From the IMG/VR virus record IMGVR_UViG_3300022493_000042, positions 1 to 6,578 of that record: a stretch of DNA of 6,578 bases, one strand, 5' to 3'. Below are positions 1-6,578 of the stretch, in pieces. The notes beneath the pieces were generated by a model. It saw only the letters and a program-made list of their open reading frames with translations. It had not been told where the DNA came from and made no database searches. Positions within the stretch are counted from its first letter, which is position 1. The number at the start of each line of letters is the position of its first letter. The DNA comes from a virus. The translations under genes were made by a program, and so were the position numbers.

Positions 1-127
1 ATTACGCCCGATGTCTACATATATCAGTTGCGGGCTATTTACTCTCGCATACACTCTCGCAAACTTGGTCGGTTTTACGACTGGTGCAACGATCACCCCG
101 ATAATTTGCCTCAGGCTATTAATGTAG
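1..127. repeat. Terminal redundancy: 127 nt identical to 6452..6578. The window wraps around a circular genome of about 6451 nt.
   Basis: Direct comparison of the first 127 and last 127 bases shows they are identical. The repeat stops exactly at the window edges. Confidence 0.95.
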
Positions 128-384
128 ACCCTTTCGCTCTTACAGATGTGCACCTCGGTGTACTGTGTAGCTCCGCTCTCTCGTCTTATTTCGGATACGA
201 TTTAGATGAGTGTCCTGATAATGACGACTTGCGTCGTCGCTCGTTTGATGAATCTGGATATCTGACCCACGTAGGCAGATATTCAAAGCTTTCGGATGAC
301 CGTGTGAAGCGTAAAAAGTTAAATGACTATCGCAAAGGTCTTAATGTGATGAAAATTTTTGTTTCACCTCATAATAATAATTAA
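1..384 (+). CDS. VP4: C-terminal 127 codons of the replication initiator Rep (VP4-like). It continues the ORF that begins at 5189 and runs off the window end. Stop TAA at 382-384.
   Basis: The frame is continuous with 5189..6578 through the 127-nt overlap; the codon at 6452 equals the codon at 1. The first stop in that frame is at 382-384. The ORF track starts this piece at an internal TTG only because the true start lies across the circular junction. Confidence 0.8.
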   Translation: MTPDVYIYQLRAIYSRIHSRKLGRFYDWCNDHPDNLPQAINVDPFALTDVHLGVLCSSALSSYFGYDLDECPDNDDLRRRSFDESGYLTHVGRYSKLSDDRVKRKKLNDYRKGLNVMKIFVSPHNNN

Positions 385-386
385 CT

Positions 387-2366
387 ATGGCTCAAAAGCT
401 TTTTGGCGTCAATAAGCCAAACACTAATCTGAGGAAGAATGTGTTTGACCTATCCGCCACTAACAAATTTACGCTCAGTGCCGGGATGCTCGTCCCTTGT
501 CTTGTGCGTGAATTGAACCCCGGTGAAAAGGTAGAGTTATCTCTTGCCTCAATCACTCGTGCACAACCGCTCAATACTGCTGCGTTCGTCAGAATGAATC
601 AGTATTATCACGCCTTCTTCGTGCCCTATAAGCAATTGTGGTCTCCCTGGGATAATTTTATAAACGGCGTGGATTATCGTCAGTCCACTCGTGCTCTCAA
701 GGCTGGAGAAAGTATTCCCGCTTTTACCTTTAAGGAGCTTTATACCCAGCTCTTTAAGGCTGGTATTCTTGCGGGTAAGGATGCTCGTGAAGGTGAGTTT
801 TCGTCTAAAAACGCCCTTGACGCTCTCGGCTACTCTTATGTCTACGGCATTTCTCGTCTTTTGGATATGCTCGGTTATGGGTTTGAAATTACCATCAAGC
901 CCAGCGACTATATCACTAATTGGGAGAAAGCAGATGATGATGATGTGTTTGTTGAAGGTCGTGGCGGTCACGTTGGTGAGTACCATTTTGACCATAGAGG
1001 CAAAGTGCCTACTAAGCAAAAAACGCCCCCTCCTGCTTCTGATATCCGAGTGCGTATTGCTTCGTTTGCAGATTTCTGCAAGTTCGTGTTTAACAATGCT
1101 AAGGTGTTCCTTGGTGTCAATAATACGGCTTATGCGTCATCTGCCCCAGCTGTGCAGGCTAAGCTTACTCAGCTTATTTACGATTGCTTCGGAGATTTCC
1201 GCTTTAACCCTTTCCGACTTCTTGCCTATCAAAAAATCTACTATGATTTTTATCGTAGACAGGACTACGAAGGTTCAAAGCCCGAACACTATAATATAGA
1301 CGATTTCAACGGTGACCTTATGAGTATGACCGACACTCAGCGTCTCCTTGGTATCTTCCAGCTTCGCTACAGATGGCTTGCAAAAGACTACTTTACAGGC
1401 GTTGTCCCCTCGGAGCTCTTCGGTACAGAAAATCTTGTAGCTAAGAATAATGTTAATAGCTTGCTCCCCGAGTTCCGCCAGGCTATGACTAATTCGTTTA
1501 ATGGTGCAGATAGTGCTACTATCTCGTCTATGCTCTCAGATGGTCGTGGTGTAAAGCTCGGTCATAATGCAGAGATTTCTACTCGCTCTATTCGTGCTAT
1601 CTACGCTATTGAGAAGCTTATGCGTCTCACTCGTAGAGCTGGTGACTACGATTATATCTCACAGACCTCCGCTCATTATGGTGTTGATGTCCCTAAAGGT
1701 CGTGGTGAAGAGGTGTCATTTTTAGGCGGTTGGTCGTCTCAGATTGATATCTCCGAGGTTGTCACTACTGCCCTCACCGAAAAGGGAGACCCCGCCCAAA
1801 TCTATGGTAGAGGCGTAGGCACTCAACAGGGAAAGGATATCAATTATGAGGCTAAGGAACACGGTCTTTTGATGGTCATTACGTCTATCGTCCCCGATAG
1901 CGATTACTCTGGCGTTGGTATGAATAACTTTAACGCTAAATTGTATCGTGGTGACTTCTTCCATCCTGAATTTCAGGATTTAGGACTGCAACCTATTATG
2001 TCTCACGAGTTGGCTTTTCAACCTCATAAGCTCAATCGTTCTGCTACGGATAAGTTCGGCGGTTCTGTCCTCCTCGGTTACGCTCCTCGTTATGCAGAGT
2101 ATAAGACTGCTTGTGATGAGTTGCACGGTGAGTTTAGAGCTGGTAAGGAGTTCTCCCCCTGGGTATCGTCTATCAAGGTGTTGGATAATGCTTTCTTCAC
2201 CTCATCAGGTATCAAGCCCTCGGCTCTCCTGGTGTCTCCCTCTCAGTTGGATAGTATCTTCTCAGTCCGTTTTGACGGTACGGAGAGTACCGACCAATTT
2301 ATGTGCGTGTGTAATAATATTTGTAAAATCATCCGCCCAATGTCAGTGACAGGGCAAAATCTCTAA
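387..2366 (+). CDS. VP1: Major capsid protein VP1 (F-like), 659 aa
   Basis: The N-terminus MAQKLFGVNKPNTNLRKNVFDLSATNKFTLSAGMLVPCLV has the R-N-x-FDLS...K-T...G-x-L-P signature of Microviridae major capsid proteins. It is 659 aa long, starts 2 nt after the Rep stop, and is the longest ORF in the window. Confidence 0.9.
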   Translation: MAQKLFGVNKPNTNLRKNVFDLSATNKFTLSAGMLVPCLVRELNPGEKVELSLASITRAQPLNTAAFVRMNQYYHAFFVPYKQLWSPWDNFINGVDYRQSTRALKAGESIPAFTFKELYTQLFKAGILAGKDAREGEFSSKNALDALGYSYVYGISRLLDMLGYGFEITIKPSDYITNWEKADDDDVFVEGRGGHVGEYHFDHRGKVPTKQKTPPPASDIRVRIASFADFCKFVFNNAKVFLGVNNTAYASSAPAVQAKLTQLIYDCFGDFRFNPFRLLAYQKIYYDFYRRQDYEGSKPEHYNIDDFNGDLMSMTDTQRLLGIFQLRYRWLAKDYFTGVVPSELFGTENLVAKNNVNSLLPEFRQAMTNSFNGADSATISSMLSDGRGVKLGHNAEISTRSIRAIYAIEKLMRLTRRAGDYDYISQTSAHYGVDVPKGRGEEVSFLGGWSSQIDISEVVTTALTEKGDPAQIYGRGVGTQQGKDINYEAKEHGLLMVITSIVPDSDYSGVGMNNFNAKLYRGDFFHPEFQDLGLQPIMSHELAFQPHKLNRSATDKFGGSVLLGYAPRYAEYKTACDELHGEFRAGKEFSPWVSSIKVLDNAFFTSSGIKPSALLVSPSQLDSIFSVRFDGTESTDQFMCVCNNICKIIRPMSVTGQNL

Positions 2367-2369
2367 GCT

Positions 2370-2822
2370 ATGCCTAACAGAAGCTATCTCAAGCGAACTC
2401 AGCCCTATATTGATGTAGAGGTGCAGGTTTCAGGTAATGATGCCCACGATATGGCTATAGGTGTCTACGATCCTGAATATGTCGCTATGCTTTACCCTAC
2501 GGACGCTCGTAGCGGTTTCCCGACTTCTGACCTTGCACGTGTGCTCTCTTCTGAGGTATCACAGGCTGATAAGGAGCGTATCCTTAATCGTCTTCAGAGA
2601 GAGGATGGACAGTTCTTGCCCTCCGACCTCACCGATGAGGATGTGTTTACTCTTGTACCTCCCCGCTTCGTGCTTGGCGACCAGGTCAATATCCAGCGCT
2701 GGCGTGACTATCTCGCTTCCGATGTCTTGCCATTTATGCGAGACGAGGTTAAGGCTATGGATGTAGTCCCCGATGTCAATTCTCCTTCTAACTCTAACGA
2801 TAATAACAATGGCACAGAATGA
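2370..2822 (+). CDS. 150-aa acidic protein, possibly an internal scaffolding protein (VP3-like). Function not established.
   Basis: The ATG lies 3 nt after the VP1 stop and the T-ending codon usage matches neighbouring genes. It is D/E-rich with an Asn/Ser-rich tail. Size and position between VP1 and VP2 match gokushovirus VP3, but no diagnostic motif was recognised. Confidence 0.5.
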   Translation: MPNRSYLKRTQPYIDVEVQVSGNDAHDMAIGVYDPEYVAMLYPTDARSGFPTSDLARVLSSEVSQADKERILNRLQREDGQFLPSDLTDEDVFTLVPPRFVLGDQVNIQRWRDYLASDVLPFMRDEVKAMDVVPDVNSPSNSNDNNNGTE

Positions 2823-2991
2823 AAACAAGCACTCTAAGTTGCTTTCTATCCTGATTTTCGTAGTACAGTTGCTTCCTACGATTATTCGGTTTCTTGGCAG
2901 TCTTGGTAAGGGATCTCCCGACCCTGTGGACGTACCTACGCCCGATACTCCTACGGATATTACTGATACTCATTTTCCTGACCCTCATTAA
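2809..2991 (+). CDS. Small membrane protein, 60 aa from ATG 2809 (72 aa from ATG 2773). Holin-like candidate.
   Basis: MAQNENKHSK precedes a 22-residue hydrophobic helix (LLSILIFVVQLLPTIIRFLGSL), followed by an acidic Pro/Asp/Thr-rich tail. There are two in-frame Met codons (2773 and 2809). The upstream one adds a short hydrophobic segment (SILLLTLTIIT) and overlaps the end of the preceding ORF. It ends 12 nt before VP2. Confidence 0.4.
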   Translation: MAQNENKHSKLLSILIFVVQLLPTIIRFLGSLGKGSPDPVDVPTPDTPTDITDTHFPDPH

Positions 2992-3002
2992 GTGTAGTCA
3001 AT

Positions 3003-4124
3003 ATGGCACTCCTTGAAACAGGAATAACTGCGGGCACCTCCTTAATTGGAGGTGTCCTCGGCTATTTTGGACAAAAATCTGCGAATGCAGAAGCTCTCAA
3101 GCGAATGCGAGAGCAAAACGATTTCGCTGAGCGAATGTGGAATAAAGGTAACGAATATAACACTCCTTACGAGCAACGTAAGAGGTACGAACTCGCTGGT
3201 ATTAATCCGTATCTCGCTCTTGGAAATATTCAGGCTGGTAATGCTCAAGGGAGCGTTACCCCCGCTCCTCCTGCTCCTGTTGGAAACGCTGGTGCGTTTC
3301 TTGGTTCAGGTGCAAATCAGGCTGTAAATGCTTACTTGCAGAATCAGCTTATATCCTCTCAGGTTGAGAAAAATCTTGCCGATGCCGACGCTGTGCGTAC
3401 TGATACTCCCTTTATCGGTCGTCGCAATGAGGCGGATATCGCCTCTACGGAAGCAAGCACGGAGAATACTCGTGCTAAAACTGATTTGGATAGAGCGAAT
3501 ACGCTTGTTGCTACGGCTAATCTTGACCGTCTTAAACAGATGACCCCTGTAGAAGTACAGTTAATGCAGGCTAACGTGGAAAATGTTACTGCTAATACGT
3601 CTCTTACCAAGTTGCAGGAGAAGATACAAGATTGGGAGTTCCGCTATATTAAGCCCCTGGAGGCTCAGGAGATTAAAGCACGTATCTCTCAAGCCTATGC
3701 GACTATTGGTTATCTTGTGGCTCAGCAACGTTTATCCGTTGCTCAGGCTGGTTTGGTTGCTAAAATGACGCTTACGGAAATTCAGCGAGAAAAAGGTGTC
3801 CGCTTGGATAATATGCTTAAGCAAGACGACTTCTCTCGCCGTGATGTAGACTTTTGGACTGAAATGGAGAATAAGCGTGCACAGACTAAGTACCTTAACT
3901 CTCAGTCCGATAAGACTGATGACGATAATGAACGTGCTTGGATGGGTTTCGTTATGGATTTATTTAGTACAGGTGCTTCTATGGCTATGCCTGCTCCTTT
4001 TGGTGTTGGTCCTGGTGCAGCTGGTTTTACTGGAGGTATCCCTAAAACAGGTACATTCCGTACTCCTCCGCCTGCTCCTCGTCCTACTCCTCCTCGTCCT
4101 CGAGGTATGCCTAATCGTAGATAG
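3003..4124 (+). CDS. VP2: Minor capsid / DNA pilot protein VP2 (H-like), 373 aa
   Basis: The motif NEYNTPYEQRKRYELAGINPYLALGN matches the conserved VP2 signature of gokushovirus-like phages. A long Ala/Gln/Thr-rich predicted coiled-coil lies in the middle, and a Gly- and Pro-rich basic C-terminus (PPPAPRPTPPRPRGMPNRR) follows. Confidence 0.85.
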   Translation: MALLETGITAGTSLIGGVLGYFGQKSANAEALKRMREQNDFAERMWNKGNEYNTPYEQRKRYELAGINPYLALGNIQAGNAQGSVTPAPPAPVGNAGAFLGSGANQAVNAYLQNQLISSQVEKNLADADAVRTDTPFIGRRNEADIASTEASTENTRAKTDLDRANTLVATANLDRLKQMTPVEVQLMQANVENVTANTSLTKLQEKIQDWEFRYIKPLEAQEIKARISQAYATIGYLVAQQRLSVAQAGLVAKMTLTEIQREKGVRLDNMLKQDDFSRRDVDFWTEMENKRAQTKYLNSQSDKTDDDNERAWMGFVMDLFSTGASMAMPAPFGVGPGAAGFTGGIPKTGTFRTPPPAPRPTPPRPRGMPNRR

Positions 4125-4125
4125 T

Positions 4126-4251
4126 ATGCTTCTGTATATCGTCTCCTCGGTGCTCTTTGTAGCTCTCGTCTTCGGTATCTCGTGTGCCTGGTGTAGTGCG
4201 CTCTCTAACTGCTATGCCAAGAGTGCAGACCCCCCTAAACCGACTGCATAG
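4126..4251 (+). CDS. 41-aa single-transmembrane peptide (MLLYIVSSVLFVALVFGISCAWCSALSNCYAKSADPPKPTA). Possible membrane or lysis accessory protein.
   Basis: The ATG lies 1 nt after the VP2 stop (TAGtATG), i.e. translationally coupled. About 25 consecutive hydrophobic residues are followed by a short polar tail. The stop is immediately followed by a hairpin. Translated by hand from the sequence; it is the real tail of the otherwise spurious track ORF 3877..4251. Confidence 0.35.
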   Translation: MLLYIVSSVLFVALVFGISCAWCSALSNCYAKSADPPKPTA

Positions 4252-4253
4252 CC

Positions 4254-4269
4254 CGTAACTCACGTTACG
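4254..4269 (+). terminator. Short hairpin CGTAAC-tcac-GTTACG (6-bp stem, 4-nt loop) 3 nt after the last structural-gene stop. Possible transcript end or processing structure.
   Basis: A perfect 6-bp inverted repeat is seen directly. No U-tract follows it, so it is not a canonical intrinsic terminator. Confidence 0.2.
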
Positions 4270-4350
4270 TTCGGAGCGTACTGCCCCGACTATCATCCAT
4301 CTAACTGCTCGTACCTGTCGTTTGACCCCCTAAAGTCACTGCGGTATAAA

Positions 4351-4415
4351 AGAGGTATAGGCGTATGACAATAAGCGACCAAAGGGAAGCGCCATTGCCA
4401 TACGAATATACCTCT
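4351..4415. repeat. Long imperfect inverted repeat: AGAGGTATAGGCGTATG (4351-4367) pairs with CATACGAATATACCTCT (4399-4415), 15/17 bp, around a ~31-nt loop. GGTATA / TATACC direct repeats sit within each arm.
   Basis: Seen directly. Arm 1 contains GGTATA twice (4344-4349 and 4354-4359). Arm 2 contains TATACC twice (4407-4412 and 4415-4420). It lies in the only sizeable non-coding region of the genome. Confidence 0.55.
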
Positions 4416-4514
4416 ATACCTTTGCGGTGCTTTAGTGGACAAATGCCAGGTACACGCTATTAGATGATAGTCGTGCAGTAGCTTCGGAGTTGCCCCTGAT
4501 GTTTCCCATTTCTC

Positions 4515-4550
4515 GGCGCAATAACGTAGTGCGCCCTACAAGCTTGATAT
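4515..4550 (+). promoter_or_regulatory. GC hairpin GGCGC-aataacgtagt-GCGCC (4515-4535) followed by CTTGATAT (4543-4550), which resembles the phiX174 gene A nick-site core CAACTTG^ATATT. Candidate Rep recognition or nick site.
   Basis: A perfect 5-bp GC stem, and an 8-nt identity to the phiX174 origin core. An 8-mer match in 6.5 kb is not by itself significant. Confidence 0.25.
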
Positions 4551-4612
4551 CTCTAAGGAAACATCATAACAGTCTAACCTACCCCCCTCGGAAATAGCCA
4601 CTTATAAAAACG

Positions 4613-4645
4613 TTTGGCGTTTCCGAGAAAAAGTATATATCTTTG
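4613..4645 (+). promoter_or_regulatory. Bacteroidetes-type promoter candidate: TTTG (-33-like, 4613-4616), 21-nt spacer, TAtcTTTG (-7 consensus TAnnTTTG, 4638-4645), just upstream of the lysozyme ATG at 4650.
   Basis: Motif spacing matches the sigma-A(Bfr) promoter architecture. No gene in the genome has a Shine-Dalgarno sequence upstream of its start. A second TAccTTTG lies at 4417-4424. Confidence 0.3.
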
Positions 4646-4649
4646 CGCT

Positions 4650-5186
4650 ATGGAATTGCTCGCTACCTATATAGACCAGCTGAAAGCCTTTGAGGGCTTT
4701 CGTTCTATGGCTTACCTCCCAAAAGGTGAGCCTGCGTCTGAGTATCTAACCATTGGTTATGGTACACGCCTGCCAAGGACAAAAGCTCTTGCGCTGTCTC
4801 CTATGGATGAGCAAGATGCGTCCTACTATCTTAATCAGTCTCTTTCTGAGATTACAAAATTTGTCCGTAGTTCTTTGCAGGCTATACCTTATACGCTCTC
4901 AGACGCTCAGTTTACTGCCCTGGTAGACTTTTGTTATAACTGTGGCACAGGCAACTATAAGCGTTCCACTCTGTATAAGATACTCAAGACTGTACGCTTT
5001 ACTGATGAAGATTTGAGACTTCATCCTCGTGATGAGTATGTTTCGGCAAAGGTTGAGGCTATTTGCTCAGAGTTTATGCGGTGGAACAAGAGCGGAGGCA
5101 AAGTCCTCCCAGGTCTTGTGACCCGCTGTAATTGGCGTGCCTACTGCTGGCGTTCTCGTGCTGTTGATTCACTCTATGCTAAATAG
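4650..5186 (+). CDS. Phage lysozyme, GH24 family (P22 gp19 / T4 e-like endolysin), about 178 aa from ATG 4650
   Basis: IDQLKAFEGFRSMAYL...EYLTIGYGT carries the catalytic Glu and the TIGYG motif. LSDAQFTALVDFCYNCGTGNYKRSTLYKIL and FMRWNKSGGKVLPGLVTRC match the conserved C-terminal blocks of P22/lambda-family lysozymes (F.RWNKAGGKVL.GL.RRR). There is no N-terminal signal or SAR segment. The TTG at 4614 given by the track is an unlikely start; the ATG at 4650 aligns with the family N-terminus. Confidence 0.88.
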   Translation: MELLATYIDQLKAFEGFRSMAYLPKGEPASEYLTIGYGTRLPRTKALALSPMDEQDASYYLNQSLSEITKFVRSSLQAIPYTLSDAQFTALVDFCYNCGTGNYKRSTLYKILKTVRFTDEDLRLHPRDEYVSAKVEAICSEFMRWNKSGGKVLPGLVTRCNWRAYCWRSRAVDSLYAK

Positions 5187-5188
5187 AT

Positions 5189-6578
5189 ATGTCTGAGTTC
5201 TCTTTATACGGTTGTTTTGCTCCGAGGAAGGTGTTTAACAAATACCTCGGTCGTGAAATTGTCGCTAATTGCGGAAAGTGTGCATATTGTCGCTCGCTCC
5301 GCTCTTTTGACCTTACCAGCCGTGTACAAAGAGAATTTGTAAATCAGGGTGCAAATACTGCACTCTTTATAACTTTGACTTATGACAACGACCACCTCCC
5401 TGTTTATCAGTACAACGGGCGTTCCCGCAAATGGCATTCAAACTGTGGTTATCCCGACTTCGGTGATATCCCCGAACAGTACGTGTCCGATTATCCCGCT
5501 CCCGTAGGTTATGATATTGATGCTAAAATGCCACTGCGTGCGCTCGGCACTCGCTCGGCTTCACGCTTTAAGATGCGCCCTGCGTTCGCTCATCTTTGCT
5601 ACCCCGATGTGCAAAAGTACATTAGCCTGTTGCGTGCTAAGTTTTTTGCTATCTGCGCTCGCTACGATGATAGCCCTTTACATATCGCTTACGAGAATAC
5701 TGATTTGACCTATGAGACATTTTCCCTGCGTTACGCTGTGTGCGGAGAATACGGACCCTCTTCGTTCCGCCCGCATTATCACGTTATTATTTGGCTCAAC
5801 CACCAGGCAAACGATAGACAACTTTCAGCACTCTCGCAAATCTTTTCTAAGAGTTGGACGCTTGGTAATATCGATGTGCAGACCGTTACCTCGGATGGTG
5901 TTTCAGGATATTTGGCTGACTACGTTACAGGCGTTAATGGCATTCCGCCTATACTACAAGGTAGAAGAGTACGTCCCTGCTTTCATTTCTCGCAAAGCCC
6001 TACTATCGGTATGCTCCGCTTGGGTGAAGATGAGGTACAGAAAATACTCTTTACAGGAGATGCTATCAGACGTAGATTTGATGACAGACGACAGTCTGTT
6101 ATTGTTGAGGAGCTTCCCCTTGCGACTCTCAATAAGTACTTCCCAAAGTGTAAAGGATATAGCACAGATGATTTTGCGCGCCTCCGTTATGTGTATGGAT
6201 ACGCTTACCGTTACTTTCAGGAGCGAGGACTTACCCACCGCCCCGATGAGGTAGATGCTCTTCGTCTTGTAGATGTCCCCTTTCCTGTGCGGTTGATGTC
6301 TGCTGATGCGTCAAGATATTACCGTGTTGCTCCTCGTCTCCTCGGCTCGTCTTTCAATTTCCCCGACAATGTTCGTGCTGGTCTTTGGACGTGGTGCCGT
6401 GCAGATAGGTACGCTTCGCTACAGTGTTATAGGATGTGTGTTAAGTATGGTATTACGCCCGATGTCTACATATATCAGTTGCGGGCTATTTACTCTCGCA
6501 TACACTCTCGCAAACTTGGTCGGTTTTACGACTGGTGCAACGATCACCCCGATAATTTGCCTCAGGCTATTAATGTAG
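5189..6578 (+). CDS. VP4: Replication initiation protein Rep (VP4 / gene A-like, HUH rolling-circle endonuclease), N-terminal 463 codons. The ORF runs through the window end and continues at 1..384, about 548 aa in total.
   Basis: Translated by hand: MSEFSLYGCFAPRKVFNKYLGREIVANCGKCAYCRSL...ALFITLTYDNDHLP (motif I-like), RPHYHVIIW (HUH motif, 5774-5782), and GYLADYVTG (two Tyr spaced i, i+4 as in phiX174 A Y343/Y347, 5909-5923). It is the first ATG after an in-frame stop at 5180-5182 and starts 2 nt after the lysozyme stop. The track omits it because no stop is reached inside the window. Confidence 0.88.
   Translation, partial: MSEFSLYGCFAPRKVFNKYLGREIVANCGKCAYCRSLRSFDLTSRVQREFVNQGANTALFITLTYDNDHLPVYQYNGRSRKWHSNCGYPDFGDIPEQYVSDYPAPVGYDIDAKMPLRALGTRSASRFKMRPAFAHLCYPDVQKYISLLRAKFFAICARYDDSPLHIAYENTDLTYETFSLRYAVCGEYGPSSFRPHYHVIIWLNHQANDRQLSALSQIFSKSWTLGNIDVQTVTSDGVSGYLADYVTGVNGIPPILQGRRVRPCFHFSQSPTIGMLRLGEDEVQKILFTGDAIRRRFDDRRQSVIVEELPLATLNKYFPKCKGYSTDDFARLRYVYGYAYRYFQERGLTHRPDEVDALRLVDVPFPVRLMSADASRYYRVAPRLLGSSFNFPDNVRAGLWTWCRADRYASLQCYRMCVKYGITPDVYIYQLRAIYSRIHSRKLGRFYDWCNDHPDNLPQAINV
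6452..6578. repeat. Second copy of the 127-nt terminal redundancy (equals 1..127). Marks the circular junction.
   Basis: Exact identity to 1..127. Confidence 0.95.

Follow-up and report, generated by a model that had tools for sequence, protein, structure and literature searches.

How might an oral microvirus whose lysozyme carries no export signal open the cytoplasmic membrane of its host? The question is raised by positions 1 to 6,578 of IMG/VR record IMGVR_UViG_3300022493_000042 (the whole 6,578-nucleotide stretch is called the window here), a complete, circularly permuted microvirus genome of 6451 nt with 127 bp of terminal redundancy (bases 1-127 = 6452-6578). From the bare sequence, a small open reading frame (ORF), which we call gene A, had been put forward as the best holin candidate in this genome, with two start codons arranged as in lambda S. 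Our analysis supports a membrane protein with a single start, for which the most likely role, offered tentatively, is that of a putative lineage-specific, pore-forming (holin- or viroporin-like) lysis protein. Gene A is one of two or three lysis membrane-protein candidates in the genome. The parts of the locus that matter first are these:

2809-2991 (stop codon included), + strand: gene A, a 60-amino-acid (aa) single-pass membrane protein with start ATG 2809.
2815-2907, + strand: helix-coding part of gene A, residues 3-33 (AlphaFold2 helix; ratio of non-synonymous to synonymous substitution, dN/dS, 0.12-0.17; invariant Pro23).
2773-2808, + strand: upstream in-frame extension of 12 codons, MSILLLTLTIIT, whose start is not conserved (ATG in 7/22 loci).

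The size of gene A alone is not beyond chance, because the window holds 52 ORFs of at least 30 aa. A homologue search covering 5.8 billion proteins returned 39 homologous protein clusters with 68-92% identity to gene A, most of them called at 60-61 aa. For comparison at the DNA level we assembled 22 clade loci, mostly through exact-protein look-ups; collection scans added two from IMG/VR and three from JGI metagenomes, and GTDB genomes contributed no locus with the gene A profile. The ORF is kept in all 22, between a homologue of the scaffold-like ORF150 and VP2. In the frame of gene A, the stretch coding for N-terminus and helix has a dN/dS of 0.16-0.17, versus 0.8 and 2.8 in the other two frames, and an overlap-aware estimator gives 0.12. 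Constraint on the helix region is on a par with that on VP2, Rep and lysozyme (0.15-0.17; values for the large genes are VP1 0.075, ORF150 0.083, VP2 0.168, lysozyme 0.15 and Rep 0.174). A chance ORF could draw on the richness of the window in small ORFs and on the want of any family match for gene A. Against it stand the conservation of position, length and sequence across the 22 loci and 39 clusters, purifying selection specific to this frame, and homologues in two further clades; comparative data already refute this reading, and we consider it vanishingly improbable. Gene A is, by these comparisons, a genuine gene. Absence or interruption of the ORF in close relatives, named with the original prediction as a refuting outcome, was not seen in the 22 loci.

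The product of gene A, MAQNENKHSKLLSILIFVVQLLPTIIRFLGSLGKGSPDPVDVPTPDTPTDITDTHFPDPH, has a short polar N-terminus, one transmembrane (TM) helix and an acidic Pro/Asp/Thr tail. Its single hydrophobic segment reaches a Kyte-Doolittle 19-residue maximum of 2.30 at residues 23-41 of the 72-aa form that includes the upstream extension. AlphaFold2, given a 12-sequence family alignment, returns a single helix over residues 3-33, with a predicted local distance difference test (pLDDT) score of 83-89 over residues 11-30, followed by a low-confidence coil (pLDDT ~60). The 25-residue tail has an isoelectric point (pI) of 4.05, with six Asp and Glu, no Lys or Arg, seven Pro and five Thr. Together these data show a bitopic inner-membrane protein, formed by one long helix and then a disordered acidic tail, much as first described; failure to predict any TM segment, named in advance as a refuting outcome, did not occur. 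As asked of a holin, this is a small phage protein with at least one TM domain (TMD; 60 aa, one predicted helix). The end of ORF150 overlaps the start of gene A by 14 nt, and the remaining coding space is its own.

The start codon can be assigned from the same loci. ATG 2773 and ATG 2809 share a frame that ends at the stop codon 2989-2991. Within the window the description that prompted the lambda comparison is accurate: the upstream ATG adds 12 hydrophobic, uncharged residues (MSILLLTLTIIT), and it overlaps the low-complexity C-terminus of ORF150 (2370-2822) in another frame. Conservation separates the two codons. An equivalent of ATG 2809 is present in 22/22 loci, whereas only the window, L001, L004/L006, L008 and L012/L013 have an ATG where 2773 lies, and 15/22 lack one there. 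Six loci have no upstream in-frame ATG at all (L003, L009, L010/11, L014/15), and the others place one at different distances (L002/16/17, L005/7, L018-21). More distant homologues have in-frame stops upstream of the gene A start (Dulem viruses) or no ATG (L023). The extension region corresponds to an alternative frame of the indel-rich, variable C-terminal tail of ORF150, and ATG 2773 derives from an Asp-Val codon pair of that protein. Its context is G+C-rich, in contrast to the A/T-rich sequence before ATG 2809 (aacgataataacaATGgca), which resembles that of the VP1 start. ATG 2809 is thus the sole start of gene A, and ATG 2773 is a by-product of the overlapping ORF150 tail, found in a few close relatives.

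In lambda, S105 and S107 arise from two starts, and the original prediction saw a resemblance to this here. In such a model the longer product from ATG 2773 is an antiholin, and the ratio of start codons sets the time of lysis. The resemblance is that both phages pair a small membrane protein with a soluble, signal-less muralytic enzyme, and that in the window and its closest relatives (L001, L004/6, L008, L012/13) two in-frame ATGs precede the hydrophobic segment. There are also differences. The lambda starts lie 1-2 codons apart and the longer product gains a basic residue (Met-Lys-Met), whereas here 12 chargeless residues would be added from an unconserved stretch in an unlike start context; lambda S has three TMDs (N-out, C-in) and the gene A product one; gene A is not adjacent to the endolysin gene, its C-terminus is acidic rather than basic, and there is no sequence similarity. 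With the ATG itself missing from most loci, a lambda-like dual start is refuted as a conserved feature as far as sequence comparison can decide. We hold it to be extremely improbable for the window too, where no lambda-type holin/antiholin pair would be made from two start codons.

The gene A family extends beyond this clade. An exhaustive profile search of 1.84 billion representatives found one real relative outside the query's own cluster, P0041 (54 aa, E=1e-6); two other matches were repetitive junk. P0041 is encoded in a microvirus prophage, L022 (6583-13264), with the gene order VP1, ORF154, A-like, VP2, B-like, lysozyme, Rep. Integration has split Rep into an N-terminal part (12296-13264) and a C-terminal part (6583-7377), which places the attachment site inside Rep. 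The MutS2 encoded beside the prophage shares 98% identity with its counterpart in a Porphyromonadaceae metagenome-assembled genome and 93% with the one in Porphyromonas pasteri, and the host is a Porphyromonas, Gram-negative. A third clade is formed by Dulem viruses 259 and 235 (lemur saliva and faeces), which encode a 62-aa protein in the gene A position that matches the gene A family profile in hhalign (95.3% probability). Searching GenBank phages with the Dulem and P0041 proteins (tblastn) gave no new loci.

Despite their distance, the three clades agree in the helix. Pro23 does not vary among 40 sequences, nor in the P0041 and Dulem clades. Polar residues recur in all three at -10, -3, +4 and +11 from this proline (S/K/K, Q/K/N, R/K/E and K/R/S, respectively); these heptad-spaced positions are fixed while the residue identities vary, creating a narrow stripe on one face of a hydrophobic helix. 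The tail is acidic and Pro/Ser/Thr-rich throughout. The predicted architecture of gene A is therefore conserved in three microvirus clades of oral/gut Bacteroidota-type hosts. From the polar stripe and invariant proline we infer a self-associating, pore-lining helix.

Any lysis role has to be read against two other genes of the window:

4650-5186, + strand: GH24 lysozyme, 178 aa from ATG 4650 (PF00959, E=1.5e-24; PHROG endolysin).
4126-4251, + strand: gene B, a 41-aa membrane protein, MLLYIVSSVLFVALVFGISCAWCSALSNCYAKSADPPKPTA, starting 2 nt after the VP2 stop.

The lysozyme lacks a signal or signal-arrest-release (SAR) segment, the latter as first proposed: there is no N-terminal extension or hydrophobic segment, its residue 9 aligning with residue 11 of a 149-aa lysozyme of solved structure. 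The enzyme therefore has no way across the membrane on its own and needs some membrane-permeabilising partner. Residues 14-38 keep the catalytic Glu (FEG) and the TIGYG motif. The canonical AYxD Asp site reads AYLPKGEPASEY instead, with a four-residue insertion, and the second catalytic residue may be displaced. An apparent endolysin swap in OR148992 (L001), where 4295-4831 is annotated as 'peptidase M15', is an annotation error; the product is the same PF00959/GH24 lysozyme.

PV594042 (L003) lacks precisely the lysozyme. Its bases 147-634 match window 4165-4651 and those from 633 onward match 5187 onward, such that the conserved lysozyme leader runs straight into the Rep ATG (L003 595-660 against window 4610-4665 and 5160-5215). 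Genes A and B are both kept, and the lysozyme thus behaves as a cassette that can be removed. A tblastn search of PV594042 and the Dulem genomes found neither a lysozyme nor an M15 peptidase.

The gene B product combines a hydrophobic helix at its N-terminus with the motif WC-x-(A/L)-L-(S/T)-x-CY. The gene has been left mostly unannotated, missed by gene callers in all fetched loci and called in only two database clusters. Its coding signature is clear, with a dN/dS of 0.19 in frame versus 1.6 in the other two and variable columns at codon positions 1/2/3 of 11/7/19 (of 37). No locus covering the region lacks gene B, the Porphyromonas prophage included. We considered gene B as a lipoprotein spanin and rejected this, as the Cys of 'VSC' is Leu in L003, L018-21 and L025 and absent in L022, and there is no basic n-region. 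Strongly hydrophobic products in the genome are limited to A, B, the pilot protein and A' (an alternative-frame product of the gene A tail, described below).

The mechanism that we favour for gene A runs as follows. Copies of its helix would come together in the cytoplasmic membrane, polar stripe against polar stripe, and, once a critical concentration is reached late in infection, would permeabilise it in the manner of a holin or viroporin. Through this lesion, which in the window genome A might make by itself or in concert with B, the GH24 lysozyme, lacking a signal, would gain access to the cell wall. On this reading the gene A family is older and more widespread than the lysozyme, so that its activity cannot depend on that enzyme; the lysozyme would be a later add-on to an existing membrane-damage function. 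That permeabilisation by gene A is ancestral to the lineage and lysozyme-independent is possible, and we advance it with reserve. Two known holins are instructive. T4 gpT (class III) has a single TMD, N-in/C-out, in a 218-aa protein with a large periplasmic domain, and the charge distribution of gene A predicts the same topology. Pinholin S21-68 has two TMDs, uses a polar helix face to line a small oligomeric channel and works with an SAR endolysin. The polar face is what we propose for the heptad stripe of gene A; unlike S21-68/71, its frame-0 product has one TMD, and the lysozyme has no N-terminal hydrophobic or SAR segment.

Several observations weigh against gene A as the holin. Its place is among the structural genes, flanked by the scaffold-like gene and the pilot gene; the lysozyme lies 1.66 kb further downstream, beyond VP2, gene B and ~0.4 kb of conserved non-coding sequence. 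Gene A is kept in PV594042, where the lysozyme is absent, and also in Dulem 235 and 259, in which no endolysin can be recognised. In most holins that have been characterised the cytoplasmic tail is basic; that of gene A is charged but acidic (pI 4.05, and acidic in three clades), and in the window clade its own frame shows no purifying selection there. When A, its 72-aa form, A' and B were scanned against Pfam, PHROGs and NCBIfam (E<=10), none of them matched a holin, amurin or spanin family; the sole matches of the Dulem protein and P0041 were weak ones to phrog_29597 (function unknown), at its N-terminus. Membership of gene A in any known holin or amurin family is accordingly not supported by such profile comparisons. 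In two more distant oral relatives, L110 (OR148994, 4216-4709) and L109 (PV067915, 4411-4856), an M15-type peptidase is immediately followed by a 32-34-aa ORF with a TM segment plus KKKK. This is the classical holin position, and these genomes have no A-like gene. Finally, gene B is as good a lysis candidate as gene A, being a conserved TM gene nearer the lysozyme. Of the claim that gene A is the best holin candidate, the pairing of a membrane protein with a signal-less lysozyme that needs a partner holds, and 'best' does not, given an equal in gene B and the persistence of A without an endolysin.

Taken further, these points lead to a reading in which gene A is not the holin: B, alone or with A', would permeabilise the membrane for the lysozyme, and A would have another membrane role, such as superinfection exclusion, burst-size tuning like that of phiX174 K, or anchoring of assembly or DNA delivery beside the pilot gene. 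We find this doubtful, though worth serious attention. The coding signature of B, its place between VP2 and lysozyme in all covering loci and the Porphyromonas prophage, and the recurrence of small TM ORFs directly after VP2 in distant relatives (L109, L110, L112) speak for it, as do the structural-module setting of A and its persistence without an endolysin. The same argument from persistence turns on B, which is also kept in lysozyme-less PV594042. B is moreover still ~400 nt from the lysozyme and fits no family (weak PHROG matches to generic TM proteins), and no alternative role of A has positive evidence. Protein K of phiX174 is a 56-aa membrane-associated accessory protein of uncertain role, overprinted across the A/C junction. 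The gene A product is likewise a microvirus protein that is small, non-structural and membrane-associated; the two are unrelated in sequence, and the helix of A is far more conserved than expected of a dispensable accessory protein.

Retention in endolysin-less relatives, which must still lyse, also bears on a third reading, that gene A is an endolysin-independent amurin like phiX174 E, the MraY inhibitor. Its sequence-specific helix, with the invariant proline, would then bind and block a membrane step of cell-wall synthesis, the C-terminal tail would matter little and the lysozyme would be accessory. Single-gene lysis by phiX174 E is the only lysis mechanism characterised in Microviridae (PMC3394797, PMC12596118). 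In Alpavirinae, endolysin-like accessory genes between VP2 and VP4 have been reported, with no holin described (PMC3394797, PMC9239249). E and A belong to the same viral family, and each has a constrained N-terminal TM helix with a proline that is essential in E and invariant, in three clades, in A. In both the C-terminal part tolerates much change, A having a nearly invariant helix and a loosely constrained tail. E works without a phage endolysin, and similar independence would explain gene A in relatives that have none. Yet A has no similarity to E and no match to Microvir_lysis (PF04517) at E<=10. E is overprinted in scaffold gene D, whereas A overlaps ORF150 by 14 nt only, and the C-terminal domain of E is basic where that of A is acidic. 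The conserved heptad stripe fits self-association round a pore better than target docking, the acidic character of the tail is kept across clades, which argues that it is not a mere passenger, and two independent clades keep a lysozyme beside A. We consider an amurin unlikely, and return to the tail of the putative pore-forming protein, which behaves unexpectedly in the window clade:

2908-2988, + strand: acidic Pro/Asp/Thr tail of gene A in frame 0, where constraint follows the +1 frame.
2881-2894, + strand: invariant 14-nt stretch, ATTATTCGGTTTCT, with all 14 columns, third positions too, unchanged in 17 unique sequences; the +1 frame opens here.
2903-3016, + strand: A', a hydrophobic +1-frame ORF without ATG, LVRDLPTLWTYLRPILLRILLILIFLTLIKCSQYGTP, from TTG 2903 to TGA 3014-3016, 14 nt into VP2.

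The +1 frame is open in 17/17 unique sequences, from just after TGA 2879 to TGA 3014-3016, and encodes LFGFLAVLVRDLPTLWTYLRPILLRILLILIFLTLIKCSQYGTP. The stop TGA 2879 lies directly upstream of the invariant stretch in 14/17, and TTG 2903 is present in 17/17. Codon periodicity flips along the gene. Diversity at codon positions 1/2/3 is 0.129/0.077/0.260 in 2809-2907 versus 0.246/0.169/0.099 in 2908-2988, and 0.256/0.166/0.056 in the second half of the tail (Mann-Whitney pos3<pos1, p=0.0004 for the tail). The frame-0 dN/dS of the tail is 1.4-1.9. Substitutions that are synonymous in frame 0 and non-synonymous in +1 (dSN) fall to 0.119 in the tail versus 0.456 in the helix part, and the reverse class (dNS) stands at 0.316 in the tail. 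Over the same bases, mean pairwise amino-acid identity is 0.77 for A' versus 0.66 for the frame-0 tail. Windows in which the third position is the least variable are rare in the five large genes (30/1716), and 28 of these lie inside a conserved +1 ORF within Rep (5712-6254). RNA or DNA structure was rejected as the cause of the synonymous constraint in the tail (consensus fold -6 kcal/mol, single-sequence z-score +0.5). The OLGenie-style ratio dNN/dNS is 0.52 in the tail versus 0.58 in the helix part, although stops close the +1 frame there; as it does not discriminate, we relied on dSN, dNS and codon periodicity. We put the chance that a +1-frame product of the tail is under selection, on these substitution patterns, at about even.

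Such a product could be made by recoding, compatible with a lysis role, if the 3' third of the gene were read in the +1 frame in the window clade. A +1 frameshift within 2882-2935 would yield a two-helix isoform of ~68 aa, and initiation at TTG 2903 a 37-aa hydrophobic peptide; either might pair with the acidic-tailed form as a holin/antiholin-like timing pair. The flipped periodicity, its rarity elsewhere, the dSN and dNS values, the universally open and better-conserved +1 ORF, the invariant stretch, the constant TTG and the failure of RNA structure to explain the constraint all favour this. There are difficulties, however. A' has no ATG, and a possible prfB-like shift site (Shine-Dalgarno-like AAGGGA, UCU, CCC-G) is not universal, L001 having ACC and a weaker Shine-Dalgarno-like sequence. 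dNN/dNS is no lower in the tail than in the helix part, and wherever frame 0 is rich in P/D/T, a +1 frame that is open and rich in Leu/Ile follows automatically. In the Dulem clade stop codons close the +1 ORF, and tail differences between L022 and L023, and between the two Dulem viruses, have ordinary frame-0 periodicity. The signal comes from 17 unique sequences and 81 bases only. Both recoding itself and a dual-coding timing pair made by it strike us as decidedly unlikely. Like the MS2 L gene, phiX174 E in D and lambda Rz1 in Rz, A' would encode a hydrophobic peptide in an overlapping frame, and it bridges a gene 3' end, a spacer and the next gene start as MS2 L does for coat and replicase. 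Those genes have canonical starts and demonstrated products; A' has no ATG and is proposed from substitution patterns alone.

Further observations touch this region and its counterpart in Rep. The invariant CGGUUUC in gene A (2886-2893) can pair with GAAACAGG inside VP2 (3015-3022); both sides are invariant, with no covariation, and the pairing may be chance. Within Rep, 5712-6254 (+ strand, +1 frame) is a 180-aa ORF conserved in all relatives, and the stretches where the third position is least variable (5819-5893, 5948-5989, 6080-6187), the sole other such regions of the genome, lie inside it. This 180-aa ORF is a candidate for overprinting comparable to that of B and K in gene A of phiX174. 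A 65-aa ORF at 5511-5708 is also conserved as an ORF.

The remaining genes of the window, all of whose genes are on the + strand, are as follows:

387-2366, + strand: VP1 (Phage_F).
2370-2822, + strand: ORF150, scaffold-like, conserved at 71-85% identity, with a variable low-complexity C-terminus (dN/dS 0.083).
3003-4124, + strand: VP2, DNA pilot protein (PHROG pilot-protein families, E=3e-16), directly downstream of A and A'.
5189-6578, on across the window ends to 384, + strand: Rep, 548 aa, with a HYHVIIW motif.

Rep seems to be missing from a linear scan, where it is not one ORF, because it spans the ends of the circularly permuted genome; the absence is only apparent. The nearest GenBank records come from human saliva and nasopharynx (OR148992, 89.6% identity; PV594040 and PV594042, ~75%). 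No Shine-Dalgarno motif precedes any gene of the window, and the starts have A/T-rich leaders. This combination is consistent with a Bacteroidota host. Rfam has no match anywhere in the window. The 'non-coding' ~0.4 kb before the lysozyme (4252-4649) has a diversity of 0.07-0.29 versus 0.40-0.55 in the VP2 C-terminus. Its consensus fold of -115 kcal/mol has 112 pairs, 10 of them with double-sided compensatory changes, from only seven sequences. This region may be a complementary-strand origin or a structured RNA.

Lysis is understood in one microvirus lineage only, through protein E of phiX174. Alpavirinae-type microviruses of human-associated Bacteroidota are abundant, and the endolysins that they have acquired sporadically lack a described membrane partner. 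The A and B families provide concrete, cheaply testable candidates for the proteins that open the cytoplasmic membrane. That both outlast the endolysin suggests an older membrane step, to which the endolysin was added afterwards. The frame flip in the gene A tail and its match in Rep indicate that routine annotation of microviruses is probably overlooking overprinted genes.

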